From Chloroflexota bacterium (GTDB lineage Bacteria; Chloroflexota; Dehalococcoidia; Dehalococcoidales; UBA5760), in NCBI GenBank assembly GCA_015222205.1, contig JADFUW010000002.1, forward strand, positions 1,303 to 65,302: 64,000 bases of DNA, given 5' to 3'. The translations under genes were made by a program, and so were the position numbers. This document shows positions 41,298 to 60,253 of this stretch, piece by piece. Position 1 is the first letter of the stretch. Every line of letters starts with the position of its first letter. Under the pieces are notes generated by a model that saw only the letters and a list, made by a program, of their open reading frames with translations, was not told where the DNA came from and ran no database searches.

Positions 41298-42013
41298 AGC
41301 AGTTTAGCGGTTTCCCGGCTAAGATGCAGTTTATCCCCCTGCCCAATCTTTTCTTTAGTGCACTCTTGCCGCAAATCAACGATATGGCTGAGCTAAAGAC
41401 AACTCTATATATCTTAGCCACTCTTTACCGCAAGCGGGGCTACCCTCGCTTTGTCAGTTATAGAGAGCTATTAAGCAGCACCAGCCTGATATGTAGCCTT
41501 AAAGAAATAGCTGAGCCACCCGAAAAGTTATTGCGTAAAGCCCTGGAGATGGCGGCCAAGCGGGGCACTGTCCTTCATATAGTAGTGGATAGGGATGGGG
41601 TGTCTGAGGATATTTATTTTTTGAATACTGAGGAAAGTAGACAGGCGGTAGCTAAGATTGAGGGTGGTGAGCTTATCCTCCCTGGACTGGAAACTGCGGG
41701 GCGAACTTATCTTGGTGCCGGGGTTGGTGAGCAGTCTAACATCTTCACCCTCTACGAGCAGAATATTGGTATGCTAACCCCGATGATTGCTGAGGAGCTA
41801 CGGGAGGCGGAGAAGCTTTATCCTGCAGCCTGGATTAAGGATGCTATCAAGGAGGCAGTTAACCAGAGTAAACGCAAATGGAGCTATATTTCGGCAATAT
41901 TAGAGCGCTGGTCATCAGAGGGTAGGAGCGATGGAACCTATAGGCGAGATTCTGAAAAGACAGACCCGGATAAATACATCAAGGGCAAGTATGGGCACAT
42001 GGTCCGGCGCTAG
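41294..42013 (+). CDS. DnaD-domain (DnaB_2-type) replication protein
   Basis: 239 aa. ATGA overlap with the dnaB stop. The C-terminal NIFTLYEQNIGMLTPMIAEEL...WIKDAIKEAVNQSKRKWSYISAILERW is the DnaD C-terminal domain pattern. Confidence 0.75.
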   Translation: MKQFSGFPAKMQFIPLPNLFFSALLPQINDMAELKTTLYILATLYRKRGYPRFVSYRELLSSTSLICSLKEIAEPPEKLLRKALEMAAKRGTVLHIVVDRDGVSEDIYFLNTEESRQAVAKIEGGELILPGLETAGRTYLGAGVGEQSNIFTLYEQNIGMLTPMIAEELREAEKLYPAAWIKDAIKEAVNQSKRKWSYISAILERWSSEGRSDGTYRRDSEKTDPDKYIKGKYGHMVRR

Positions 42014-43340
42014 CGAGACTGAAGAAGACCTCCCAGGTGCAAACTGCCCTATTTGTGGCGGGGCGGGGTTTGTTCACCCTCTTCTCCCCACCGGGAAGGC
42101 CGATTTTAGTCGGGTTATCCCCTGCCGTTGTAGCCGGGAAGCCTTGGATAAGGAGCGCCAGACTCACTTGCTCAGTTACAGCAACCTGGGAGCACTGACC
42201 CGCTTCACTTTTGCCAATCTATTACCCCAAGGGAGAAGTGGGGACCCGATAAACCAGGAGCAGTTTACCCGTGCTCATGAAGCTGCCAAAGCCTTTGCTA
42301 GTCAGCCCGAGGGATGGCTAGTCCTGACTGGCCCCAGTAGCTGTGGTAAAACGCATCTAGCGGCGGCTATTGCTAACGAATGTATTAGCCGAGGTCAGCT
42401 AGCCTTTTTTATCTCTGCGCCTGACCTCCTAGACCGTCTGCGCTCTGCCTTCAGCCCCAATAGTGAAATGCCCTATGACGAATTCTTTGACCGGGTGCGT
42501 AATGCTCCGCTATTGGTTTTAGATGATTTAGGGGCTCAAACCAGTACCACTTGGGCCAAGGAAAAATTGGACCAACTGCTAAATTATCGCTTTAATAGCC
42601 AGTTACCCACGGTGATTGTTACTATTGCTCTTGTTGAACAGCTTGAGGAGCGAATACGCACTCGCCTGACCGACCCTGATTTGTGTCATATATGTGTCGT
42701 TGAGGCAGAGCCAGTCCTGTCAGAATATAGCTGGGGTCCAGAGTTCGAGCTACAAAAAACTATGACCTTTAAAAGCTTTGACCGTCGGCGGCTTAATCTG
42801 CCACCAGAGCAGCGCGAGAACCTGGAGTCAGCATTTGATTTGGCTTTTAACTTTGCCAAATCACCTGAGGGTTGGGTAGTATTTATGGGCGTTACCGGCT
42901 GTGGTAAAACGCATCTAGCGGCGGCTATTGTTAACTATTGTTATCAAGCCCAAAAGCCTGCCCTGTTCGTGGTGGTCCCTGAGTTCCTTGACCATTTGCG
43001 TTCCACTTTCAGCCCGGAGAGCAAGGTTTCCTATGACCAGCTGTTTGAAAGAATAAAGACGGCGCCGTTACTCGTTCTGGATGACTTTGGTGAGCAGTCA
43101 ACCACACCCTGGGCACAAGAAAAGCTCTATCAGGTTATTAACTACCGCTATAACGCGCGATTGGCGACAGTAATTACTGCCCGCGGTTCACTAGATGAGA
43201 TCGATAGCCCTATCAGTTCCCGGCTAGCAGACCCTAAAATAAGCACCCCATTTAATATCATCGCTCCTGATTATCGGGGTGATTTACAGTCCAGCCGGAG
43301 GAAAGTATCCCATGGTGGTAGGAAAAGGCGCTGGGATTAG
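41991..43340 (+). CDS. tandem-duplicated DnaC/IstB-like AAA+ helicase-loader protein with N-terminal zinc ribbon
   Basis: Two consecutive DnaC-like modules, each with Walker A (GPSSCGKTHLAAAI / GVTGCGKTHLAAAI) and Walker B (LLVLDDLG / LLVLDDFG). They are preceded by CPICGG...CRC. The start is ATG 41991 or 41931. Confidence 0.8.
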   Translation: MGTWSGASETEEDLPGANCPICGGAGFVHPLLPTGKADFSRVIPCRCSREALDKERQTHLLSYSNLGALTRFTFANLLPQGRSGDPINQEQFTRAHEAAKAFASQPEGWLVLTGPSSCGKTHLAAAIANECISRGQLAFFISAPDLLDRLRSAFSPNSEMPYDEFFDRVRNAPLLVLDDLGAQTSTTWAKEKLDQLLNYRFNSQLPTVIVTIALVEQLEERIRTRLTDPDLCHICVVEAEPVLSEYSWGPEFELQKTMTFKSFDRRRLNLPPEQRENLESAFDLAFNFAKSPEGWVVFMGVTGCGKTHLAAAIVNYCYQAQKPALFVVVPEFLDHLRSTFSPESKVSYDQLFERIKTAPLLVLDDFGEQSTTPWAQEKLYQVINYRYNARLATVITARGSLDEIDSPISSRLADPKISTPFNIIAPDYRGDLQSSRRKVSHGGRKRRWD

Positions 43341-47481: not shown

Positions 47482-49176
47482 ATGAAATGCTATAGAGTTT
47501 TCTGCGGGGTGGCGTTGGGTATTATCTTTGCCTTGTTAATGGCGGTATTTCCGACTATACCCGTCCACGCTGAGGGTGAACTTATTACCCTCTACCCTGC
47601 TGAGGGGGAAATTGGTGAGAAGATTGATATTGAGGGTGGGGGCTTTGGTGAAGGTAGCTATGTTTATATCTACTTCTCCGGCGATGCTGCCAATGAAGGC
47701 GATGACATTGATGGGGAGGTTACCCACTATAAGCTGTTGGAAAGAAATATTAGGGTTAGTGAAGAAACTTCATTGCATCCGGGTGAATTTAATACCTATT
47801 TCAAAGTGCCAGAGGAGCTTGATGACGGTGAAAGTAGGGAAGATGTGCATTGTGGCGACTATTATGTTTACGCTACTTATCGTACCAGTAAGGATATAAT
47901 TGCAGTGGCTAGATTTGCTGTAATTGGCTGTAAAATTGAGTTAGCCCCTGAGGAAGGCACAGTGGGTACTGAGGTTAAGGTTAGCGGTGAGGGTCTGTGT
48001 AGTAATAAAGAAATTACCGCTAGATATGATGATAGTGAGGTTGACATAATAAGTGGTGATACGAGGAGCGACGAAGAAGGTCAATTTGTATGTACTATTA
48101 TTGTACCAGAGAGTACTGTTGGTAACCATATTATAGCCGTTGTTGATGAATCGGGTAGTAAGCCTGAGACCGGGTTTTGTGTAAAGCCAGCAATAACTGT
48201 AAATCCTTCGTTACAGGCTGTAGATGGGATAGTAAATATTAGAGGCACCGGGTTTGAGGGGAGGGAACGTATCACCATCGTTCTTGATGGTGGTGAGATT
48301 TTCACTACCCCGGTAACCCTGTATACATCCCTACATACATCCCTACATACTAACTACTATGGTAGCTTTAATGGAAGTTTCATCGTGCCTCCCTATCCCG
48401 CCTATGTAGGTGGCGGCACCGGGAAGGTAAAGGCCTACGATGATAGCTTTAATGTGGCTGAGTCAGAACTAACTGTTGTGGCTATTCCAGCCAGCATCAG
48501 CCTGTGCCCGACTACTAGTCTTGCCTCACCTGGCCATGCTGGCATGGAGCTTACCGTTGATGGTACCTGGTTTATAGCCGACACGACGGTTACTATTACC
48601 TATACTAGTGGTGATATCCTCACTGTGGCTACAGCCAGGACTAGTGAAAGCGGGGATTTCTCAGTGACCTTTACGGTACCACCCAGCGCTGTGGGAGGCC
48701 ATGCCGTAACTGCTACCGATGGTACCAACAGGGTAACAACCATCTTTACTATGGAATCAGAAACACCACCAATGCCAGTGCCACGGCTACCAGAGGTTAC
48801 CGCTACGGTAGAAGGGGAGACATATTTTGATTGGGAGGATGTTACTGACCCCAGTGACATAACCTATGTTTTGCAGATTGGGGCTGATAGCGATTTTGCC
48901 GTTATAGTGTTGGAGAAGGAGGGGCTGGCTGCCTCAGAATATACCCTTACTGAAGAAGAGAAGCTAGAATCAAGTGAGAAGGAGATGCCTTACTACTGGA
49001 GGGTAAAGGCGATAGATGGTGCCTTCAATGAAAGTGGATGGACAGCCCCTAGCGCATTTTATGTTGGCACTTCCTGGGTATCAATTCCTACCTGGATTAG
49101 ATATATATGGATAGGGCTCGGTATATCGTTGGCTGCTATCCTTATCTTCCGGATGCGGAGAAGGGTCAGCGAGTAG
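47482..49176 (+). CDS. secreted, C-terminally membrane-anchored surface protein with repeated IPT/TIG-like Ig-fold modules and a C-terminal FN3-like module
   Basis: 564 aa. Signal peptide (...PVHA-EG). At least four repeats of the pattern P.EG.(I/V)G..(I/V).(I/V).G.GF......D..G.F...F.VP....G.H. C-terminal TM helice WIGLGISLAAILIF followed by RMRRR. Confidence 0.7.
   Translation: MKCYRVFCGVALGIIFALLMAVFPTIPVHAEGELITLYPAEGEIGEKIDIEGGGFGEGSYVYIYFSGDAANEGDDIDGEVTHYKLLERNIRVSEETSLHPGEFNTYFKVPEELDDGESREDVHCGDYYVYATYRTSKDIIAVARFAVIGCKIELAPEEGTVGTEVKVSGEGLCSNKEITARYDDSEVDIISGDTRSDEEGQFVCTIIVPESTVGNHIIAVVDESGSKPETGFCVKPAITVNPSLQAVDGIVNIRGTGFEGRERITIVLDGGEIFTTPVTLYTSLHTSLHTNYYGSFNGSFIVPPYPAYVGGGTGKVKAYDDSFNVAESELTVVAIPASISLCPTTSLASPGHAGMELTVDGTWFIADTTVTITYTSGDILTVATARTSESGDFSVTFTVPPSAVGGHAVTATDGTNRVTTIFTMESETPPMPVPRLPEVTATVEGETYFDWEDVTDPSDITYVLQIGADSDFAVIVLEKEGLAASEYTLTEEEKLESSEKEMPYYWRVKAIDGAFNESGWTAPSAFYVGTSWVSIPTWIRYIWIGLGISLAAILIFRMRRRVSE
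48323..48350 (+). repeat. in-frame 12-bp tandem repeat (ATACATCCCTAC x2.3) inside the surface-protein gene
   Basis: Read directly. Encodes the duplicated TSLH-TSLH. Confidence 0.9.
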
Positions 49177-49252: not shown

Positions 49253-49768
49253 CTATTCTGGTTTTAGCCTAATCTGGATTTTCTTGCCCTTCTTAACCAC
49301 CTGCTCTACAGGCGGCATTTCCCTTAAGATGTCTATTAAGGGGATGGATTTTTCCGCTGAGATAATAATCTCGCTACCTTCAGCTACTGAGCCACCAATC
49401 AATACTAGGCGTAGGTCTTGAACTTGGTGCAAGCACTCTTCTAACTTCCTAACCTGACCTAAATCTATCGGCGATACTATCGTTAGTTTTACTATTCCCC
49501 TATGAGGTTCAGCATTTACTGCTTCTTTAGCTCCTCTCTTGGCTGTCTCTTTGGCTGTCTGCTCAGCCTTCTTTTTAGCCTTTGCCTCAGCTTCTTTGGC
49601 TTTCTTAGCTTCTTCAGCTTCCCTCATTGCTCTCTCCTTGGCTTCTTGCTCGACCTTCTTTTTTGCCTTTGCTTTCCCGGTTGAGTCACCTCTCATTATA
49701 ATAGGGTAACCGCACCATCGGCAAAAGTCGCCATCAGTTCTTTGACCACAGCTAGGACATTTTGGCAT
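49253..49768 (-). CDS. hypothetical zinc-ribbon protein with K/A/E-rich low-complexity linker and conserved-looking C-terminal domain
   Basis: 171 aa. N-terminal CPSCG..(9)..CRWCG, then ~60 aa of K/A/E repeats, then an 80-aa alpha/beta-looking domain. No family recognised. Confidence 0.55.
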   Translation of the reverse strand: MPKCPSCGQRTDGDFCRWCGYPIIMRGDSTGKAKAKKKVEQEAKERAMREAEEAKKAKEAEAKAKKKAEQTAKETAKRGAKEAVNAEPHRGIVKLTIVSPIDLGQVRKLEECLHQVQDLRLVLIGGSVAEGSEIIISAEKSIPLIDILREMPPVEQVVKKGKKIQIRLKPE

Positions 49769-50371: not shown

Positions 50372-50443
50372 GCCCGGGAGGATGAGATAACATATTAGAA
50401 GTCTGCCGGATATAAATATAGTACTTAAATGAGGAGCAGTTGG

Positions 50444-51139
50444 ATGAATAAAATCGTGGTGATGGTAATTGATGAGGAGTCATTTTTCAGGGTTGGTGTG
50501 CGCCAGGCACTATCTCAACAATCTGACTTCAGCATTTTAGATTGTGACCCGGCTCAGGACCCATTAGAAATGATTGAAGCCCACCTCCCCAATGTTGTGC
50601 TATTAGGTTCTAACCTTGCTGCCCACGACGGCCTTGAACTGGGTAGAAGAATTGCCCGATATTACCCAAATACTAAAGTAATAATGCTGAGTCCCAACCC
50701 TGGTGACGAAGAGCTTTTTGAGGTTATTAAGACGGCAGCCGTGGCTTGCTTAAGTAGGAACATCGCTACGGAAGAGCTGGTTAGCACGATAAGACGGGCG
50801 TACCGAGGTGAATACCCCATTAATGATAGCCTTATAACTAGACCTAAGGTTGCCCAGCGGGTGTTAAATCAGTTTCAAGAAATGTCGTCAATGGGGAAGG
50901 CCATAGAGACTATAGTCGCCCCTCTCACCCGTCGGGAAACACAGATTCTGAACTATGTTGCCGAGGGCAACACCAATAAACAGATTGCCCATACCCTGGG
51001 GATTAGTGAGCAGACGATTAAGAGTCATATCAGCGCTATCCTGCGCAAGCTGAATGCTAATGATAGGGCCCATGCTGTTGCCCTAGCTATACGTAATGGC
51101 TGGATTTCAGTGGAGGGGATATCAGGAGAGGCATACTAG
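50444..51139 (+). CDS. LuxR/NarL-family response-regulator-like transcription factor with degenerate receiver domain
   Basis: C-terminal LuxR HTH (LTRRETQILNYVAEGNTNKQIAHTLGISEQTIKSHISAILRKL). The N-terminal receiver fold lacks the phospho-acceptor Asp: VVLLGSNL appears where VVLMDLxMP is expected. Confidence 0.85.
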   Translation: MNKIVVMVIDEESFFRVGVRQALSQQSDFSILDCDPAQDPLEMIEAHLPNVVLLGSNLAAHDGLELGRRIARYYPNTKVIMLSPNPGDEELFEVIKTAAVACLSRNIATEELVSTIRRAYRGEYPINDSLITRPKVAQRVLNQFQEMSSMGKAIETIVAPLTRRETQILNYVAEGNTNKQIAHTLGISEQTIKSHISAILRKLNANDRAHAVALAIRNGWISVEGISGEAY

Positions 51140-51209: not shown

Positions 51210-53621
51210 GTGAGCAAAGAAGGAATTGGGAACATGGGTGATACCCTTGATTTTTGCCAGTTGGCGGATTACACCCCACTGGAGTGGTTGCAAGAGGAGG
51301 ATAAGGTACCCCAGTTGAAAATTGACTCAAAGCTAAGAGACCAGATTCGTGAATATCTGCAGAAGCAGGGTTACGAGATAACCGAGGGAGCTAGGCTCGC
51401 CGGTAAGTCGGGGATTGAGCATAGCTTTGACATGGTGGCGCAAAGGGAAGATGGTTTTACTAACTATACTGTGGCTATCTGCATTGCGGCTGGGGGTGAT
51501 AGAGAAACAGAAGTGAACACAATTTTTGGCTTTGCCAACAAAGCCTACGATACCGGTATCCATGACCGGGTTCTCATTGCCGTTCCTGAGCTTAGTCGAG
51601 AGGCGAAACAGTTGGCCCGCAAGCAGCGAATAAAGGTCATTGATGGAGAAAAAATAGGGGCGTTATTAGCCCTGGAGCCTATGCCACCAGTTAAACTAAA
51701 CGAGCCCTTTAGCTTTGAGACAAAGGAGCAATTGGTGGAATCGTTAGTGAACCGAGGCTATGTGGTTGAGGAGAATGCCAAGGTTCAAAGCCGCTCAGGG
51801 GTTGAGTATAGCTTTGATATATTGGCTCATATTGATATGGATAACGTTGGCCACAGCCTAGGCATAGATTTCCTGACTGGGGAGAGGGAGATAGGTCTGG
51901 AACAGGTGTCCTTATTTGATACTAAAGCCTACGAGACCGGCATCGACGATAAGGTCATTGTTGTGTCGCCGGGGCTTAGCCCTGAAGCGAAGCAATTTGC
52001 CCAGCACCAGCGGATAAGAGTCTTTGGGTTAGGTCGAAAGTCGGTTTCTAAAGACTCAGTAACTGAAAAAACCCCTACCCAGCCAGTGGAGAAACCAACT
52101 AAGTTAGCCCCCACCAAGCCTCGGACTAGGCAGCTGCGGCAAATGGTTCAACCTGAGGCGTTGCAACTGGTTCCCGAGGTGATGGCGAGAAGGTATAATG
52201 CTATACCTTTGGCTATCTCTGGTAACACGCTGAAGGTAGCTATGGCTGACCCGACGGATATCTTTGCCCTGGAGGCTTTCACTGCCCAGAGTAAGAAGAG
52301 AATTCAGCCTGTAGCCGCTGGTGCCAAGGAAGTTAGGGAGGCTATCGACTTTAGTTATAAAAGCTACGGCGAGATTGAGAAGCAGATTTCTAGTATCTCC
52401 ATCCCATCTGATGCCCTTGATGAGAGGCTGGCTATTGATGCTGCCGTTGATGCTCCTCTAGCTCAGGCTCTCGACCTCATTGTTGGAGAAGCGTTTAAGG
52501 CTCGCTCATCTGATATTCATATTGAGCCAGAAGAGGACAGGGTGAGGGTGCGCTATCGTATCGATGGTACGCTTCAAGATATGATGTCCCTGCCGCTAAA
52601 CATACATCGGGCTATTATTTCTCGAATTAAAATCCTGTCTGATATGAATATTGCTGACCATCATCATGCCCAAGATGGCCAATTCTCTACTGAGGCTAAA
52701 GGGCGGGAAATAGACATTCGTGTAGCTACTAGTCCCACTGTCTCTGGTGAGATGGCGGTACTACGTCTTCTTGACAAATCACGAGCTACTTTAGGGTTAG
52801 CCGACCTTGGTCTCCTGCCGGATAGCCTGGCAAAGTACGAAAGCATGCTCAAGGTTCCTTACGGCATGATTTTGATTAGCGGCCCTACTGGGGCCGGTAA
52901 AACTACTACTTTATATGCTTCAATCAATTCCCTTGATACCCTGGGCAGGAACATCATTACTATTGAAGACCCGGCTGAATATCGGTTCCGGGATATTAAC
53001 CAGATCCAGGTTAATCCTCAAGCTGGTATTACCTTTGCCCGGGGACTACGGTCTATACTTCGTCTTGACCCTGATGTCATATTGGTCGGTGAGATACGTG
53101 ACGCTGAGACAACTAACATAGCGGTTCAGTCAGCTTTAACCGGACACCTGATGCTCTCTTCTATCCATGCTAGCGATGCTGCCGGTGTGCTTACCCGACT
53201 CATTGACCTGGGTGTAGAACCCTTCTTAATAGCCTCATCGGTTATTGGTATTATGGCTCAGCGAATGGTGCGTCGCGTCTGTCCTGATTGCAGCCACCTT
53301 ATTGAGGCGCCTCTGGTAGAACGGATGGCTTATGAAAAGGAAATTGGGGAAGAGAGGACTGAATTTTTATATGGTACCGGCTGTGAGACATGTGCTTATA
53401 CCGGTTATCTGGGTCGGACTGGAATCTTTGAGATTCTAGCTATGAGTGATGATATAAGAACCCTCCTCTGTAATCAAGCTAGTAGCAGCGATATTCGTGC
53501 TCAGGCAGTTAAAGAGGGGATGACATCTATGATGAATGATGGCATGCGTAAAGTAAAAGAAGGTATTACTACTCCTGTTGAAGTGCTGCGTAGTGCCTAC
53601 TCTCCTGATTTGAAGCTGTGA
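51210..53621 (+). CDS. pilB: type IV pilus assembly ATPase PilB/GspE family with two extra N-terminal restriction-endonuclease-like modules
   Basis: 803 aa. T2SSE N-domain (ARRYNAIPLAISGNTLKVAMADP), Walker A GPTGAGKTTT, Asp/His boxes and the tetracysteine CPDC...CETC are present. Residues ~40-270 are an internal duplication of a ~115-aa module. Confidence 0.92.
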   Translation: MSKEGIGNMGDTLDFCQLADYTPLEWLQEEDKVPQLKIDSKLRDQIREYLQKQGYEITEGARLAGKSGIEHSFDMVAQREDGFTNYTVAICIAAGGDRETEVNTIFGFANKAYDTGIHDRVLIAVPELSREAKQLARKQRIKVIDGEKIGALLALEPMPPVKLNEPFSFETKEQLVESLVNRGYVVEENAKVQSRSGVEYSFDILAHIDMDNVGHSLGIDFLTGEREIGLEQVSLFDTKAYETGIDDKVIVVSPGLSPEAKQFAQHQRIRVFGLGRKSVSKDSVTEKTPTQPVEKPTKLAPTKPRTRQLRQMVQPEALQLVPEVMARRYNAIPLAISGNTLKVAMADPTDIFALEAFTAQSKKRIQPVAAGAKEVREAIDFSYKSYGEIEKQISSISIPSDALDERLAIDAAVDAPLAQALDLIVGEAFKARSSDIHIEPEEDRVRVRYRIDGTLQDMMSLPLNIHRAIISRIKILSDMNIADHHHAQDGQFSTEAKGREIDIRVATSPTVSGEMAVLRLLDKSRATLGLADLGLLPDSLAKYESMLKVPYGMILISGPTGAGKTTTLYASINSLDTLGRNIITIEDPAEYRFRDINQIQVNPQAGITFARGLRSILRLDPDVILVGEIRDAETTNIAVQSALTGHLMLSSIHASDAAGVLTRLIDLGVEPFLIASSVIGIMAQRMVRRVCPDCSHLIEAPLVERMAYEKEIGEERTEFLYGTGCETCAYTGYLGRTGIFEILAMSDDIRTLLCNQASSSDIRAQAVKEGMTSMMNDGMRKVKEGITTPVEVLRSAYSPDLKL

Positions 53622-53629
53622 GGTGAAAT

Positions 53630-54841
53630 ATGGATTATGCTTATGTAGCCTATACTAGAGATAGGAGATTGGTTAAGGGTAAGCTCTCTGCTACCAGCGA
53701 GGAAGTGGCGGTTGACATATTGGGTTATGGTGGCTATCAAGTGCTTAGTCTCAAGCAATTTATCCCCTTTTTTGATAAGAGGAAGCTAGCCAGTCGCTTT
53801 TCTCAGCTAAAACCGACAGAAATAGTAATGTTTTCCCGTCAGCTAGCCTTATTGCTTGAAGCAGGTATTGACATTGTTACTTCTTTGGGGCTGTTACAGA
53901 ACCAGACGACCAGTCAAACCCTGAAACGGGTGATTGGTGAGGTGGTTGCTGATATTCGTGGCGGTAGCGCGCTGTCAGTGGCGCTAAGTAAACATCCCCG
54001 AGTTTTCTCGCAACTATACCATCGGGCAATATCTGCTGGTGAGCAAGGTGGTAATCTGGAAGTGGTGCTGAGGCAAATGGCTGACCATATAGAGAAAGGA
54101 GTTACCACCGAAAAGAAGGTGAAGGGAGCCCTGACCTATCCTATTATCGTTGGCGTGGTAGCTATTGTCGTGGTAGGTATACTAGTCTCCTATGTTTTGC
54201 CCAGCTTCACCTCTTTATACGCTGCATTTGATGTTGAATTACCCTTACCAACGAGGATAGTTATGGGGATTAGTGACTGGTTTAGCCAGTACGGACTCTA
54301 TCTTGGGTTGGGGATAGCCGCTATCTTTGGCTCTATCTTTGCTTACGTCAAAACCCCGGCCGGAAAGTATCAATGGGATAGCTTATTACTCAGGTTACCT
54401 GTATTTGGGCGTATTAACCTCCTTAATCAGCTTTCTCGTTGTTGTCGAACAATGGCGCTGTTATTTAAGGTCGGCGTGCCTGTACCGGAGATTATGGTAG
54501 TAGCCATTTATGGCACTACTAATAAGGTTGTGGCTGAAGCTTTGACTGAGATTCAGGGTGAGCTATTAAAGGGCGAAGGCTTATCCCAACCCATGTCAAG
54601 GAGAAAGCTATTTCTACCCTTGATGGTGCAGATGGTCGGGGTCGGTGAGGAAACCGGCAACCTTGATGCCACACTAACCACTGTAGCCCAGAGCTACGAA
54701 GCCGAGGCTGAGGATAAGACCAGTGCTGCTGTTGCCCTTATTCAACCAGCTATGACCATAATTATTGGAGCCGTAGTTGGCTTTATTGCCCTGTCTCTGA
54801 TTTCAGCTATGTATTCTATCTATGGTGAGGTAAGTTTCTAG
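53630..54841 (+). CDS. pilC: type II secretion/type IV pilus platform protein PilC/GspF family
   Basis: 403 aa. Two T2SSF repeats and three TM segments. Immediately after pilB. Confidence 0.92.
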   Translation: MDYAYVAYTRDRRLVKGKLSATSEEVAVDILGYGGYQVLSLKQFIPFFDKRKLASRFSQLKPTEIVMFSRQLALLLEAGIDIVTSLGLLQNQTTSQTLKRVIGEVVADIRGGSALSVALSKHPRVFSQLYHRAISAGEQGGNLEVVLRQMADHIEKGVTTEKKVKGALTYPIIVGVVAIVVVGILVSYVLPSFTSLYAAFDVELPLPTRIVMGISDWFSQYGLYLGLGIAAIFGSIFAYVKTPAGKYQWDSLLLRLPVFGRINLLNQLSRCCRTMALLFKVGVPVPEIMVVAIYGTTNKVVAEALTEIQGELLKGEGLSQPMSRRKLFLPLMVQMVGVGEETGNLDATLTTVAQSYEAEAEDKTSAAVALIQPAMTIIIGAVVGFIALSLISAMYSIYGEVSF

Positions 54842-54853
54842 GAGCTAGAGTCA

Positions 54854-55276
54854 ATGAAAAGTGAAAAGGGTTTTAGTTTAATCGGGGTAGTAATAGCCAT
54901 GGCTTTAGTGGGTATAATTGCGATTGCCTTTCTTGGCGGCTTGGCTAATGCCTCTAAGACTCTGTTTATTGCTGATGAGCGGGAGACTGCCAAAGACCTG
55001 GCAGAAAGCCAGATAGAATATGTTAAGAACCAAGATTATATTGCCGCTCTTGAGGGGGGTGAGGCAACCTATAACAACATTGACGAACCCCTGGGCTACG
55101 CTGTTATGAGTATCAACCGTAACAGTGAAACTGTTGAAGAGATAATAGGTGTTCCCTGGGATACTCAAAATAATCAACCATCAACTACTGACGATGGTAT
55201 CCAAAAAGTAGTAGTTGTCATTAAGCATCTCGGCAAGGAAGTAATCGGGTTAGAAAGCTATAAGGTAAACCGATGA
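54854..55276 (+). CDS. prepilin-type N-terminal cleavage/methylation domain protein (candidate major pilin)
   Basis: 140 aa. Class III signal MKSEKG|FSLIGVVIAMALVGII. Position +5 is Gly, not Glu. Confidence 0.8.
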   Translation: MKSEKGFSLIGVVIAMALVGIIAIAFLGGLANASKTLFIADERETAKDLAESQIEYVKNQDYIAALEGGEATYNNIDEPLGYAVMSINRNSETVEEIIGVPWDTQNNQPSTTDDGIQKVVVVIKHLGKEVIGLESYKVNR

Positions 55277-55824
55277 TATTTCGCAGGCTTAGATTGGTAC
55301 ATAAGAACCAGAGGGGTTTTACTATAATTGGGCTGATTATGGCTATCGCCGTTACCGGTCTTATCAGCACTGGTGTCACGATGACTATTTTCCAGATGCT
55401 TGATTATAATGCTCGTGATACAGCCCGTATGACCGCTGTCAAGCAGCTGGAAAATGCTGTCCATTGGATTAGCCGTGATGGCCAGATGGCTCAAACCGTG
55501 ATAGATTCCGATGACCCGGCAACCGCAGATGTTACTGAGTTCTTTGTCTTGAGCTGGACTGAGTGGAATAATGATGTGCACCGGGTTGCTTATGTCCTGG
55601 AAGGTGGCGAGCTTAAACGGAGCTATTACATCAACCCCGGAGAGCCAAGCGAGACCCTGGTGGAGATTATGGTGGCTCAACATATTGTCCCTAGTGAGTC
55701 AAGCTGTGTTTGGAATGATATTGCGGGCAGGATTACCTTTACCTTAACTACCGCTGTGAGCCATGGCTCAGGGGAGGCTACCGAGGTTCGGGTATGGGAG
55801 GTTACCCCCAGGCCAAGCTTATAA
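55273..55824 (+). CDS. prepilin-type pilin-like protein (minor pilin candidate)
   Basis: 183 aa. ...NQRG|FTIIGLIMAIAVTGLI. ATGA overlap with the previous gene. +5 Gly again. Confidence 0.75.
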   Translation: MIFRRLRLVHKNQRGFTIIGLIMAIAVTGLISTGVTMTIFQMLDYNARDTARMTAVKQLENAVHWISRDGQMAQTVIDSDDPATADVTEFFVLSWTEWNNDVHRVAYVLEGGELKRSYYINPGEPSETLVEIMVAQHIVPSESSCVWNDIAGRITFTLTTAVSHGSGEATEVRVWEVTPRPSL

Positions 55825-55841
55825 CAAACGAGTATAGTGTG

Positions 55842-56987
55842 ATGAGTAAAAGGATAAGAGTGTCACTAAATAAATCCATAAAAGGGGAGAGGGGACAGGC
55901 GCTCGTTTTAGTCTTAATCATGCTGCTTTTGGGCGGTCTTATAATTGCTCCTCTCCTGGCTTATATGGGCACTGGGATTAAGACCGGCCTGGTATTTGAG
56001 AAAAAGACCGATGAGCTATATGCTGCCGATGCCGGTGTAGAGGACGCAGTATGGAAAATAATGAGCGAGGTTGCCAGCCTGCCCAGTGAGGAAAATCCCA
56101 TGCCGCTAACGTATACCGTTGCTGATGTGAATAGTAAAGATGCGGGGGTTACTGTAACCTATGAAGGCAAGGATAGTGAGGGCGGGGATGTTTATTTAAT
56201 TACCTCAACCGCCGATGAAACTGAAATTAAATCCTATGTTGTGCTAAGCGGCGGTTTTGGTATGATATTGGACAGTGTTATCACCTCTCAGGCTGATTAT
56301 ACACTGCAAGGCCCGACTAGTGTCACCCCCGGCGAGGGAGAAGAACACGGGCCTGTAGCTAACTATAACGGGGACTGGCCTACACCTGAGGAGCTTGCTG
56401 CATTTTACTGGCAAGATGTAGAAGATGAAGTCCCTTATGCTTCTGGCACTTTAGATGTCAAAGACTGGGCTGCTACTGGAATTGGGCCACTTTATAGAGA
56501 CGGAACGCTGAGCATACAAAACAGCGGAGCTAGCGGGTTAACATTGCAACTTAATGGAACTGTCTATATTACCGGTGATACACTGATTGGGACGATCAAC
56601 CATGATTTCACTATCAACCTTAACGGGAATACAATATTTGTTGAAAGCGCCACCATAGGTAGCCCATATGCCCTGGAAATCGGGAATAAATGCACCATTA
56701 CCGGCTCGGGGTGCATTATTGCTGTTGGTGACATTCAGTTTAAACCAAATTTGAACGCCAGCCCTGGCGATTATGTTCTTGTTATGTCTGTAACAGGCAT
56801 GACTTATATGCAACCTAACGGTGATTTCTACGGCACTTTGGCCGGTAGCTCTGAAGTTCAGATACAAAATGGTGATGCTTATTGGACTGACCCATCTGAT
56901 GTTGAGGGTGGATTAAACTTCCCTGGTGGGGGTGGTGGGGGCAGCAGCGGTCGTAGTCTAAAGATACATACCTGGGGGATTAGCTGA
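55842..56987 (+). CDS. PilX-N-like pilus-associated protein with C-terminal poly-Gly
   Basis: ATG 55842 (the track ORF starts at 55794). GERGQALVLVLIMLLLGGLII resembles PilX N-terminal segments. The large beta-rich body ends in GGGGGSSG. Confidence 0.55.
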   Translation: MSKRIRVSLNKSIKGERGQALVLVLIMLLLGGLIIAPLLAYMGTGIKTGLVFEKKTDELYAADAGVEDAVWKIMSEVASLPSEENPMPLTYTVADVNSKDAGVTVTYEGKDSEGGDVYLITSTADETEIKSYVVLSGGFGMILDSVITSQADYTLQGPTSVTPGEGEEHGPVANYNGDWPTPEELAAFYWQDVEDEVPYASGTLDVKDWAATGIGPLYRDGTLSIQNSGASGLTLQLNGTVYITGDTLIGTINHDFTINLNGNTIFVESATIGSPYALEIGNKCTITGSGCIIAVGDIQFKPNLNASPGDYVLVMSVTGMTYMQPNGDFYGTLAGSSEVQIQNGDAYWTDPSDVEGGLNFPGGGGGGSSGRSLKIHTWGIS

Positions 56988-57001: not shown

Positions 57002-57682
57002 ATGAAGTTTGGTAAGACAGCCCAGATAATTCTGACAGTCGGCATTTTTGCCGTTGCCCTTATCATGCTGTATAGAATGAATCTGCAACAGGGGGTTGAG
57101 CAGGAGCAGCTAAATATGCAGTTGGCTACGAGTCAGGGTCTTCTGCCCAAGCTCACCGCTGAAGAGGAGGATTTGCAAAGCCAGCTTACCCAGTTAAACA
57201 GCAACCTGGCTGAAGCCACCTTATCACTTGGTGAGGCTAAAGGAAGATTCCCTAGTTCAGTAGAGAGTATTGAATACGACGAGGTATTATTTGAGCTGGC
57301 GTATGAGTGTGACCTGGATATAATATCACTCGTTGCCTCAGAGCCGGCTGATGAGGAGGTAGAGGTTGAGCTGGAGGCGGATGAGGAGGACCAAGAGGTA
57401 GATAATGTTACCTACTCTGTTACTTTTTTTGAAATAGAGGTGCAGGGTAAGGCGGCGACATCAACCCTTGAAACAGAGGCGGAGTGTAAGGAATATATTT
57501 ATCAGACCGTGGCTGACATACTCAGCTATTTTAGCGCAGTAGCCAGTGGAGATTACTTCACTACCGCCACTGCGGAGCTGGTAAAGATTAGTGTTCCTGA
57601 ACCTGCTATAGGGGAAGAAGGAGAAGTTGAGGCAGCGTCAGCTACCATTAAGCTTGGCGTTTACAGCTATGAAGGTGAATAG
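57002..57682 (+). CDS. PilO-like pilus assembly protein (TM + coiled coil + acidic insert)
   Basis: 226 aa. N-terminal TM helix IILTVGIFAVALIMLY, a coiled coil, and an acidic run EPADEEVEVELEADEEDQEVD. The assignment rests on architecture and context. Confidence 0.45.
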   Translation: MKFGKTAQIILTVGIFAVALIMLYRMNLQQGVEQEQLNMQLATSQGLLPKLTAEEEDLQSQLTQLNSNLAEATLSLGEAKGRFPSSVESIEYDEVLFELAYECDLDIISLVASEPADEEVEVELEADEEDQEVDNVTYSVTFFEIEVQGKAATSTLETEAECKEYIYQTVADILSYFSAVASGDYFTTATAELVKISVPEPAIGEEGEVEAASATIKLGVYSYEGE

Positions 57683-57684
57683 TT

Positions 57685-59166
57685 ATGGCTGAAGTTACTC
57701 TATTTATTGAAGATACTGCCATCAGGCTGTTAGTGGCTAAAGGTCGGCGAGTGGAAAAGTGGGCAACACTGCCACTAGAGCCAGGTTTAGTGAGCGATGG
57801 GGTCATTCTTGATGAAGCTCAGGTGGCTAGCCGGCTCAAAGAGCTATTTAGGCTCCAAAGAGTAGGGGTAAGAACGGTCACTGCTGGTTTAAGTGGGTTC
57901 AACTCTATATATCGTCTGGTTTCTCTGCCTGAGCTACCGCCGGCTATACTTCCTGAGGCGGTAAAGCAAGAGGCGAGCCGGGTGATACCGACACCTATAG
58001 ACCAGGTTTACCTTTCATATCAGTCTATTCCTGCCCCAGCAGGGGAGACGCGTGTTTTTATGGCGGCTTTCCCCCGAAATACGACTGATGCTTTACTCAG
58101 GACGCTGAATAAGGCTGGTCTTAAGGCAAGCACTATGGACCTAGCCCCTTTAGCCCTGTGCCGAACTGTTGATGTACCTCAAGCTGTAGTTGTTGATGTT
58201 CGTTCTGCCAGCTTTGATATTGTTGTTATGGTGGATAGGGTGCCCCAGGTAATTCGCGGTCTTTCTCTACCCAGTGAGGCTAAGTCTCTATCGGAGAGGC
58301 TGCCGTCCATTGCTGAAGAACTTAATAGAACTATTGCCTTTTATAATTCTAGCCACCAGGAAAAGCCCTTAGATTCAACCGTGCCTATATTTGTCTCTGG
58401 TGACCTAGCTGTAGAGCCGGACATCTGGCAATCGCTGGTTGGTACCTCCGGTTATTCTGTCTCAGCATTGCCATCGCCTATGCAATCCCTTGAGGGGTTT
58501 GACCCCAGCCAATTTATGGTTAATATTGGGCTGGCTCTCAAGAAACTATCACTGGAGAAGGAGGGGGCGCTTTTCTCTTTGGTGAACTTTAACACCATGC
58601 CTGAGGCTGAAAAGCCTAAGGGTATATCTTTATCTAAGATTCTTATGCCGGTTGGTATTGTAATTGGTACTGGCTTAGTTTTCTGGATGGTAACGCTTGT
58701 CCAGAATAGCATGGCTCATACTGAGACCCTGCGTTCTCAGCTGCTACCTATTGAGAGCCGCATTACTGAGCAGCGCCAGGAGATAGTGGCCGTTATGGAA
58801 GGGATTAAGCTGATAGAACCGCAGGTTGAGCCGTTAGAGGCTACGGCGAGTATTTTTGAGACCACATTTACCAGTCTAGGAGAAGAGCGTGACCAGGTTG
58901 ATGGCGATTTGAGTAGGATTGTTGGCTTGTTGCCCGAGAGTGTAAATTTGACTGATATTAATCATAGCGTTGCTCAGGTGATAGTAAGCGGTATAGCTCC
59001 AGATGAGGATGGCATTTTTGAGTATGCCAGAAATTTAAGGAGTAGTGGTCGTTTCTCTATGGTTGTTATCTCATCTATAGATACTTCTATAGAGGCAGAG
59101 GGGGAAGAAGAGGAAATTACGGGTTTTAGTTTTGAGTTTCTACTTATAACTAACATAGGGGAGTAA
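57685..59166 (+). CDS. PilM (actin-like ATPase fold) fused to a PilN-like TM/periplasmic segment
   Basis: 493 aa. The N-terminal ~300 aa have a PilM-like pattern, followed by TM helix ILMPVGIVIGTGLVFWMVTLV and a coiled-coil plus alpha/beta tail. Confidence 0.65.
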   Translation: MAEVTLFIEDTAIRLLVAKGRRVEKWATLPLEPGLVSDGVILDEAQVASRLKELFRLQRVGVRTVTAGLSGFNSIYRLVSLPELPPAILPEAVKQEASRVIPTPIDQVYLSYQSIPAPAGETRVFMAAFPRNTTDALLRTLNKAGLKASTMDLAPLALCRTVDVPQAVVVDVRSASFDIVVMVDRVPQVIRGLSLPSEAKSLSERLPSIAEELNRTIAFYNSSHQEKPLDSTVPIFVSGDLAVEPDIWQSLVGTSGYSVSALPSPMQSLEGFDPSQFMVNIGLALKKLSLEKEGALFSLVNFNTMPEAEKPKGISLSKILMPVGIVIGTGLVFWMVTLVQNSMAHTETLRSQLLPIESRITEQRQEIVAVMEGIKLIEPQVEPLEATASIFETTFTSLGEERDQVDGDLSRIVGLLPESVNLTDINHSVAQVIVSGIAPDEDGIFEYARNLRSSGRFSMVVISSIDTSIEAEGEEEEITGFSFEFLLITNIGE

Positions 59167-59170
59167 CGAT

Positions 59171-60253
59171 ATGGATATTTTCCCATTGCTTCACACAGCT
59201 AAGTCAAGGGGTGCCTCTGATTTGCACCTGGTTACCTCCAGCCCGCCGCTAGTGCGTGTTAACGGTTGTCTGGAGCCGGTAAACAGTGTGGCGCCACTGA
59301 CTGCTAACGAGATAAGCCAGGCTTTTCTTCAGATAACTACGCCTGAAGAGAGGGAGAACTTCCACCGTCAATTGGAGCTTGATTTTAATTACACCTTATC
59401 CGGGGTTGGTCGTCTCCGTTGTAATGCTGCTCAGCAGCGTGGTGCTATCAGCCTTGCCGTGCGTCTGTTGCCACCAGAAATTCCGACTATAGATGAACTG
59501 GAGCTGCCTCAGATATATAAGGAGCTTTCCCTAAAGCCAAGGGGGTTGATAATAGTTACCGGGCCTACCGGTAGTGGTAAGACTACCTCACAGGCGGCTA
59601 TGATTCGGTATTTAAATGAAAATGAAAGCCGTCATGTGGTTACCATTGAAGACCCGATTGAGTATATCCACCCCAGTACAAAATGTGCTATAACCCAGCG
59701 GGAGCTGGGGAGCGATACCTTGTCCTTTGCTGAAGCACTGAGGCGTGTCTTGAGACAGGACCCGGATGTAATTCTGGTAGGTGAGATGAGGGATTTGGAT
59801 ACAGCAGCGGCGGTGCTTTCAATAGCTGAGACCGGGCACTTGGTATTAAGTACTGGTCATGCCCCCAGTGCCAGCCAGGCAGTAGAGAGGGTAATAGATT
59901 TGTTTCCACCTTATGAGCGGCACTTGGCTCAGACGCGGTTGGCATCTCTACTGATTGCCGTAATGTTTCAGACACTTGTTCCTAGGGCTGACGGCTCAGG
60001 GAGAATAGCCGCTCTGGAGATTATGCTGGCTAATTCACCGGTAAGGAATCTCATTCGTGAAGGCAAAATCTATCAGTTACCCAATGTAATCCGAACTAGT
60101 CGGAATGTCGGCATGATTTCACTTGATGAGTCCTTGGTTAGCCTCTATCTTAAGCGAATCATCAGCGGTGAAAACCTGTTTACTTTCTGTAACGACCGCC
60201 AGGAAGTGGAGAAGCTTATCGGTGGGGTGGAGATGAAAAGCCCGGTGGCTTAA
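59171..60253 (+). CDS. pilT: type IV pilus retraction ATPase PilT
   Basis: 360 aa. GASDLHL, Walker A GPTGSGKTT, ILVGEMRD and AIRNLIREGK-like (PVRNLIREGK) are PilT hallmarks. Confidence 0.93.
   Translation: MDIFPLLHTAKSRGASDLHLVTSSPPLVRVNGCLEPVNSVAPLTANEISQAFLQITTPEERENFHRQLELDFNYTLSGVGRLRCNAAQQRGAISLAVRLLPPEIPTIDELELPQIYKELSLKPRGLIIVTGPTGSGKTTSQAAMIRYLNENESRHVVTIEDPIEYIHPSTKCAITQRELGSDTLSFAEALRRVLRQDPDVILVGEMRDLDTAAAVLSIAETGHLVLSTGHAPSASQAVERVIDLFPPYERHLAQTRLASLLIAVMFQTLVPRADGSGRIAALEIMLANSPVRNLIREGKIYQLPNVIRTSRNVGMISLDESLVSLYLKRIISGENLFTFCNDRQEVEKLIGGVEMKSPVA

Follow-up and report, generated by a model that had tools for sequence, protein, structure and literature searches.

We analysed a 64,000-nucleotide stretch of DNA from a Chloroflexota bacterium of the Dehalococcoidia (GenBank assembly GCA_015222205.1, contig JADFUW010000002.1; the whole stretch is hereafter called the window), in which a type IV pilus operon contains a gene for a PilB-like type IV pilus extension ATPase that carries additional domains at its N terminus. 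The gene is an open reading frame (ORF) of 803 amino acids (aa) at 51210–53621 on the plus strand, with a GTG start and an alternative ATG at codon 9. Residues 312–383 (52143–52358) matched the Pfam MshEN profile and form the N1 (MshEN/T2SSE_N) domain (63 bits, E 2e-17, profile positions 12–84 only), and residues 413–794 (52446–53591) matched T2SSE and form the ATPase core (411 bits, E 3.5e-123); the translation shows a Walker A motif (GPTGAGKTT), an Asp box, a Walker B motif, a His box and the CxxC...CxxC tetracysteine motif. The c-di-GMP motif of MshEN domains, RLGxx(L/V/I)(L/V/I)xxG(L/V/I)(L/V/I), was not found in the window protein with either the strict or a loosened pattern. Against the NCBIfam models the protein scored 514 bits for GspE and 498 bits for PilB, both under the equivalog cut-offs (TIGR02533 GspE, 630.25; TIGR02538 PilB, 675.65), as befits a divergent member of the family, and the name PilB therefore rests on context.

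Ahead of this normal N1–N2–ATPase body sits a tandem pair of domains that we termed iREx2, iRE being the name used here for a subfamily of inactive endonuclease-fold modules and iREx2 its tandem copy. Module 1 comprises residues 40–152 (51327–51665; best Mrr_cat stretch, residues 44–152) and module 2 comprises residues 172–276 (51723–52037); between them lies a linker of residues 153–171 (51666–51722), modelled with a pLDDT of about 61, in which a 'PFxFETK' sequence conserved in alignment A1 (the window segment of residues 36–285 plus 24 homologues) leads into module 2. A flexible Pro/Lys/Thr-rich linker, residues 277–311 (52038–52142; pLDDT below 50 at the end of the model), connects the pair to N1. 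A first-pass annotation, made from the letters of the sequence, had described a tandem internal duplication at 51300–52040 (residues 31–277) followed by such a linker, the T2SSE N-domain and the ATPase, and both descriptions were borne out: the two N-terminal segments align over 102 residues with 38% identity and 63% positives (E 1e-23), and the remaining boundaries are those given above.

The same annotation had assigned the repeats to the Mrr_cat-type endonuclease fold, and profile and structure searches agreed with this assignment. Pfam Mrr_cat (PF04471; gathering score 21) matched residues 1–300 in two stretches with 46.9 bits (E 3.5e-12). An AlphaFold2 model of residues 36–285, built from alignment A1, had a mean pLDDT of 84.6 and a pTM of 0.71, and its DSSP assignment gave two alpha-beta-beta-beta-alpha-beta-alpha-beta units with a low-confidence linker between them (elements H5–17 to H111–118 for module 1, numbered from residue 36). 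Foldseek searches of the Protein Data Bank (PDB) with this model returned AF1548 (1Y88), to which module 2 aligns, as the top match (E 3e-6), followed by R2 RLE, the nuclease domains of Can2, Cdn1 and VC1899, NucS/EndoMS, MspJI, Bax1, EcoT38I and AspBHI; every confident PDB match (probability 1.00) was a PD-(D/E)xK domain, and Rpb5 chains were also among the matches. Searching the PDB by sequence, whether with the protein alone or with a profile, gave nothing significant; AF1548 appeared by profile at E 0.85 and was later confirmed by structure. The Pfam family NA-iREase1 (PF22722; gathering score 27) matched residues 43–145 of the window protein with 23.9 bits, under the gathering score, and relatives with up to 33.4 bits, and database annotations call fragments of the architecture simply 'restriction endonuclease'. 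As none of the profile, AlphaFold and Foldseek analyses assigned the repeats to a different fold, the endonuclease-fold reading stands: in the N-terminal ~280 residues of PilB, a PD-(D/E)xK (Mrr_cat-like) fold domain is present as a tandem duplicate.

Module 1 also contains a stretch, GARLAGKS (residues 59–66, 51384–51407), that fits the Walker A pattern GxxxxGK[ST]. We took this as a coincidence, because its first glycine is not conserved, module 2 does not have the pattern and the stretch forms a loop between two strands.

The catalytic site and its conserved surroundings

Residue conservation was assessed by column over the window protein and 79 orthologues (80 sequences). In the profile alignment with AF1548, the catalytic Asp of that protein (in IDVVA) falls on D203 and its E-C-K on I219-D220-F221, and module 1 has I90, C91 and I92 in place of ExK. 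The first catalytic Asp, on strand beta2, is retained in both modules (D74 in 75/80 and D203 in 77/80 orthologues, 94–96%). The E and K columns are I/V/L at position 90, I/V/L/F at 92, I/V/M at 219 and F/I/V/L at 221, with no K or E in these four positions across the 80 sequences. The first-pass annotation had read the (E/Q)xK motif as degenerate, with AIC in one module and IDF in the other; the loss of the lysine and the glutamate held throughout the orthologues, but the two triplets are offset by one column and are not equivalent, as the repeat alignment pairs A89-I90-C91-I92 with G218-I219-D220-F221. The verdict of a dead canonical site survives this offset because residues 89–93 and 218–222 of the window protein contain no K or R, whatever the register. 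In the hairpin register taken from the DSSP assignment of the model, C91 faces D74 and D220 faces D203; position 91 is G, C or D across orthologues, position 220 is D in 71/80 and position 222 is L, I or M, so that in this register module 2 has two acidic residues and no lysine. Judged from the sequences, the canonical (E/Q)xK site has been lost and the domain is not predicted to be an active Mrr-type enzyme, a conclusion that we regard as robust.

Conservation extends well beyond the Asp. The signature of the subfamily, G(K/R)SG-x-x-H-x-x-D-h-h-A ... F-x-x-K-x-(Y/F)-D-x-G, is strongly conserved; F236, D237, K239 and Y241 are invariant (80/80), position 242 is always E or D, and the conserved K/R positions include K66, R79, K111, R120, R140 and K142. 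Both modules are on average net acidic, with mean charges of -2.6 and -3.75.

Fusion and fission within pilus operons

Relatives were sought in one genome per GTDB species; 161 genomes contained one, and the locus counts given here come from the best 80. These 80 all belong to Dehalococcoidia, Dehalococcoidales or Chloroflexota metagenome-assembled genomes, apart from two labelled Deltaproteobacteria. The two (L025 and L035) carry a complete Dehalococcoidia-type regulator–iREx2–PilB–PilC–pilin operon with 62–64% identity, and a binning or labelling error, not horizontal transfer, most likely explains their labels.

In 66/80 species-representative genomes a single ORF encodes the iREx2 pair and the ATPase, in every case heading a type IV pilus operon; measured from stop to stop, its median length is 790 codons. 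We considered that the fusion might be an artefact, with two genes brought together by faulty assembly or a frameshift, or else the decaying remnant of a restriction gene. Four loci (L032, L043, L053 and L078) do have the module and the ATPase in different ORFs; yet the same in-frame fusion recurs in 66 independent species-level assemblies at 45–76% identity and with its motifs conserved, and this repetition excludes an artefact for practical purposes.

The separated forms are informative in themselves. One of the four loci (L053) encodes a free-standing 243-aa iREx2 protein (P0025) followed by a PilB core. At two loci outside these four (L063 and L065), a separate ORF of ~455 aa has a TackOD1 domain as its N-terminal half and iREx2 as its C-terminal half; it abuts or runs into the start of the gene for a 523-aa PilB without iRE, with PilC and pilins downstream. 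Elsewhere (L070, L073, L075 and L077, and the metagenomic L085 and L091) the TackOD1–iREx2 gene lies at the far end of the operon, where it is convergent with PilT and adjoins a prepilin peptidase gene, and one contig (DAOUDM010000005.1) has both a fused PilB (L055) and a TackOD1–iREx2 gene (L073). Dehalococcoidial iREx2 thus occurs in three forms: fused to PilB, as a stand-alone protein and as TackOD1–iREx2 directly upstream of a short PilB. No other evidence speaks as strongly for the module working with PilB, whether in cis or in trans, as this fusion/split (Rosetta-stone) pattern. As a separate observation, one relative (P0107, 1111 aa) is a PilB with the tandem module at residues 9–246 and ~380 unassigned residues before MshEN.

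The operon around the fused gene is conserved in order, the window included: a REC–LuxR regulator, iREx2–PilB, PilC, two pilins, two proteins of unassigned family, a PilM–PilN fusion and PilT, all encoded on the plus strand in the window. Directly upstream of PilB lies a response regulator with REC and LuxR-type helix-turn-helix (HTH) domains (50429–51139; Pfam Response_reg and GerE), a homologue of which precedes the fused gene in 52/72 loci without TackOD1. Downstream follow PilC (53630–54841; T2SSF), two pilins (54854–55276 and 55273–55824; N_methyl), two conserved proteins with no Pfam match, of 397 aa (55794–56987; with an N-terminal hydrophobic segment like that of a minor pilin) and 226 aa (57002–57682), a 493-aa PilM–PilN fusion (57685–59166; PilM_2+PilN) that is kept across related loci, and a PilT-like retraction ATPase (59171–60253; T2SSE). 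The counterpart of the 397-aa protein is far larger in other loci (742–1164 aa).

In the window the operon is surrounded by housekeeping genes such as mutS, recG, dnaB, holB and def, and the PADLOC defence models gave only one match, at a chance level of 15.9 bits. The locus is a chromosomal type IV pilus operon and not a restriction or defence locus. Among the ORFs scanned, which cover part of the window, no competence gene turned up. Farther upstream, a minus-strand gene (49253–49768) encodes a 171-aa protein that has a zinc ribbon at the N terminus (weak DUF7575 match), continues through a region rich in Lys, Glu and Ala and ends in a small domain, and a plus-strand gene (47482–49176) encodes a 564-aa protein with Ig-like repeats and a C-terminal membrane anchor; the pair recurs upstream of regulator–PilB in ~10 other Dehalococcoidia loci and may belong to the pilus neighbourhood. 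At 41931–43340 on the plus strand, downstream of dnaB and a DnaD/DnaB_2-like gene, a 469-aa DnaC/IstB-like AAA protein apparently has two P-loop regions (residues ~113–247 and 293–388), and its gene overlaps the preceding ORF by ~80 nt.

The module outside PilB

A profile search over 1.84 billion representative proteins (cut-off E<=1e-3) gave 1026 matches, 192 of them at E<=1e-10. Domain content was counted in 56 representatives of at least 300 aa, taken from the best 150 profile matches: TackOD1 was found in 40, REC in 17, MshEN in 8, T2SSE in 6 and a KaiC-like ATPase in 1. The usual home of iRE is therefore the C terminus of TackOD1 (arCOG06883) proteins, which have a winged HTH and a multi-zinc-ribbon region and often an N-terminal receiver domain. 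Matches of ~320 aa, which include Nitrososphaerales/Thaumarchaeota and candidate division WOR-3 members, are TackOD1 followed by one iRE module; they were considered as genuine Mrr enzymes, and this was dropped once their sequences had been read. In the thaumarchaeal members Pfam gives TackOD1 only, and the iRE profile built here detects the module at E 3e-15. Foldseek with a whole TackOD1–iREx2 model returned endonuclease-fold matches only and nothing on the TackOD1 fold. The window protein itself gave no Pfam match to TackOD1 (PF18551), and tblastn found none across the whole window. A further family member (P0173, 1210 aa) matches the module profile partially at nine places, and no partner domain is recognisable in it.

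Galperin et al. (2018, PMC5847659) defined TackOD1 as a response-regulator output domain and called its function obscure, and Makarova et al. (2016, PMC4858521) found arCOG06883, to which it corresponds, chiefly in type IV pilus loci of Thaumarchaeota. The text of the 2018 paper contains none of the words 'endonuclease', 'restriction' and 'Mrr', and that of the 2016 paper neither 'endonuclease' nor 'nuclease'; the endonuclease-fold C-terminal module of TackOD1 proteins is previously unnoted.

Outside Dehalococcoidia, iRE has genes for polysaccharide synthases as a second recurrent neighbour besides pilus genes. In three different proteins REC–TackOD1–iRE is encoded between a GAF histidine kinase/OmpR pair and a family 2 glycosyltransferase (GT2) resembling chitin or cellulose synthases, and a thaumarchaeal TackOD1–iRE gene lies 41 bp upstream of a chitin-/cellulose-synthase-like GT2 gene. 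In a JGI metagenome (3300029892; L089, 8001–9104), the gene for a single iRE fused to a KaiC-like ATPase (P0190, 367 aa) overlaps a GT2 cellulose-synthase-like gene at the latter's start, and more KaiC-like and REC–KaiC genes lie nearby. In a set of one T2SSE and two T2SSF genes, the stop codon of the second T2SSF gene is immediately followed by the start of another TackOD1–iRE gene. Proteins encoded beside two kinds of envelope polymer machines thus have the iRE module in common. Loci L081–L084, L086 and L087 have GT2 chitin/cellulose-synthase-like genes directly downstream of (REC-)TackOD1–iRE, accompanied by genes for UDP-glucose dehydrogenase and an epimerase, or by polysaccharide deacetylase, GlmU-like and GlmS genes, which suggests a regulated GlcNAc-type exopolysaccharide (EPS) locus.

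Proposed function and known systems

We propose, tentatively and as a reading that falls somewhat short of an even chance, that iREx2 provides the pilus motor with a non-catalytic input domain that would serve as regulator or adaptor. Because iRE also occurs on signalling proteins encoded beside pilus and polysaccharide-synthase genes, the module is probably a regulatory adaptor and not a DNA cutter. The two modules may pack as an intramolecular pseudo-dimer that mimics the homodimer that single-module relatives would form, for which the pTM of the model, reached despite the floppy linker, gives weak support. The pair would act through putative protein–protein contacts, its partner being the ATPase body or, in homotypic fashion, the iRE of TackOD1 regulators, and these contacts could gate or localise PilB in response to two-component signalling. 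In this way iREx2 might do for PilB what c-di-GMP-binding MshEN or PilZ domains do as regulators of other pilus motors and EPS synthases; since the MshEN domain of the window PilB is devoid of the c-di-GMP motif, iREx2 may stand in for this input. The first-pass annotation had offered two functions, a regulatory input and a coupling of the pilus to DNA uptake or competence. Its functional inference is supported in part: the former agrees well with the comparative genomics, in that the module occurs in REC–TackOD1 response regulators and as a separate gene beside PilB; the latter is unsupported, as the modules are acidic on average, the scanned part of the window showed no competence gene and the module family is associated equally often with GT2 synthases, enzymes that have nothing to do with DNA.

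Several observations weigh against an adaptor that acts by protein contacts. A strongly conserved polar set (H71, D74, K111 and D114 in module 1; D203, K239, Y241 and E242 in module 2) points, together with the retained Asp, to a binding pocket and not to a plain interaction surface; the partners of the module are very different (PilB, GT2 synthases and KaiC-like ATPases), so that a shared small ligand or DNA would be more economical; and the winged HTH and zinc ribbons of the TackOD1 partners are typical of nucleic-acid binders. The main rival explanation, which follows the nucleic-acid idea of the first-pass annotation, holds that the dead fold still binds DNA or RNA, tethering PilB to DNA for competence or nucleoid positioning, or regulating adjacent operons. 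We consider it unlikely, although it has much in its favour: the ancestry of the module is a DNA-cleaving fold, inactive DNA-contacting endonuclease domains are known (Rpb5, itself among the Foldseek matches, is one), the catalytic-site Asp and several K/R positions are conserved, receiver domains most often precede DNA-binding outputs, and regulators commonly adjoin their targets, which would account for both the pilus and the GT2 neighbourhoods. Yet the mean net charge is negative in both modules, fusions to PilB and to a KaiC-like ATPase are not transcription-factor-like, the GT2 loci already have an OmpR-type DNA-binding regulator and the window a LuxR-type one, and the ORFs scanned in the window yielded no competence gene.

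A relic pocket could instead bind a metal ion or a nucleotide-type second messenger, so that the iRE module would serve as an input domain much as MshEN and PilZ do. The two targets on which c-di-GMP receptors classically act are type IV pilus ATPases and GT2 synthases, and such a sensor would account for iRE accompanying both pilus motors and EPS synthases. The missing c-di-GMP motif in the MshEN domain of the window PilB also speaks for this reading, as do the conserved H-x-x-D ... K-x-(Y/F)-D residues and G(K/R)SG loop shared by both repeats and by distant members. It is nonetheless quite improbable in our estimate: no known example or structural match of a ligand-binding endonuclease-fold domain was found, Can2 and Cdn1 align by their nuclease domains and not by their CARF sensor domains, and the members with a receiver domain already have phosphorylation as their input. 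The helix residues, moreover, may be structural, since AF1548, with its ExK intact, has R and D at the same two positions. That comparison also bears on the suggestion that the module is an active nuclease of non-canonical design, whose lysine would have moved to K111 or K239 and whose second acid to D114 or E242 (in module 2, alternatively D220). In AF1548 the helix K/R...D pair stands alongside an unaltered ExK; it is therefore no replacement for that motif, and K111 and K239 are not read as migrated catalytic lysines. Some restriction enzymes do have rearranged active sites, and the invariance of K239, D237 and E/D242, as well as an Asp at position 220 in most orthologues that in the model would lie across the strand from D203, could be read in this way. 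However, module 1 and many TackOD1-type members have G or C where module 2 has D220, the modules partially match the Pfam inactive-endonuclease family NA-iREase1, and a cytoplasmic nuclease on a housekeeping pilus motor would be hazardous and without obvious role; we hold activity to be very improbable.

If the adaptor reading is extended to the whole family, iRE may be the common adaptor of an unrecognised regulatory system of Bacteria and Archaea that switches type IV pili and GT2-dependent polysaccharides on and off, a possible but doubtful generalisation. The inputs to such a system would be two-component signals (REC–TackOD1–iRE), KaiC-like ATPases (iRE–KaiC) or the motor itself (iREx2–PilB), and the dead fold, which might carry a ligand where its active site used to be, would parallel PilZ and MshEN while being independent of c-di-GMP. 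The parallel linkage to GT2 synthases and to pili suggests that surface attachment structures are under a common control in bacteria and archaea alike. If true, the shared-adaptor reading would give the long-unassigned TackOD1/arCOG06883 proteins, flagged in 2016–2018 as pilus-linked and now seen to carry an unnoticed inactive endonuclease module, a function. The naturally fused and split forms (iREx2–PilB; iREx2 plus PilB; TackOD1–iREx2 plus PilB) make the interaction hypothesis testable in vitro, which is useful because Dehalococcoidia are hard to grow.

N-terminal domains control pilus extension ATPases and, to our knowledge, little is known of them outside c-di-GMP and MshEN, and nothing for Chloroflexota. 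Literature searches combining PilB with restriction endonuclease, Mrr_cat with pilus and Dehalococcoidia with PilB found no description of the present architecture, in keeping with the first-pass remark that no characterisation of it was known; iREx2 is a new conserved type of N-terminal domain for PilB that a specialist would not have predicted. The closest functional parallels are the accessory N-terminal domains of pilus and secretion ATPases, namely the c-di-GMP-binding MshEN of MshE/PilB and the triple GSPII of Thermus PilF. Like these, iREx2 is an extra, presumably regulatory N-terminal domain placed before the N1–N2–CTD body; unlike them, it has an unrelated fold, and the c-di-GMP motif is absent from the window PilB. 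Mrr_cat and AF1548 (PDB 1Y88) share with iRE the alpha-beta-beta-beta-alpha-beta core, a Pfam match above threshold and the first catalytic Asp, whereas iRE has hydrophobic residues for (E/Q)xK, is duplicated in tandem and lies in a pilus operon instead of a restriction or defence context. The TackOD1/arCOG06883 proteins carry iRE at the C terminus and share the type IV pilus neighbourhood, and in L063 and L065 TackOD1–iREx2 occupies exactly the position of the fused domain in the window; the window protein differs in having no TackOD1 or zinc-ribbon part, its iRE being attached directly to the ATPase. NA-iREase1, the NACHT-associated inactive restriction endonuclease, is likewise a non-catalytic Mrr-like fold used as an accessory domain, but its partners are STAND NTPases in conflict systems rather than pilus or EPS machinery, and the score of the window protein is sub-threshold. 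The N-terminal domain of Rpb5 and other non-catalytic PD-(D/E)xK domains similarly keep the fold as a structural or DNA-contacting module; the likeness of Rpb5 to iRE stops at the fold, within an unrelated complex.

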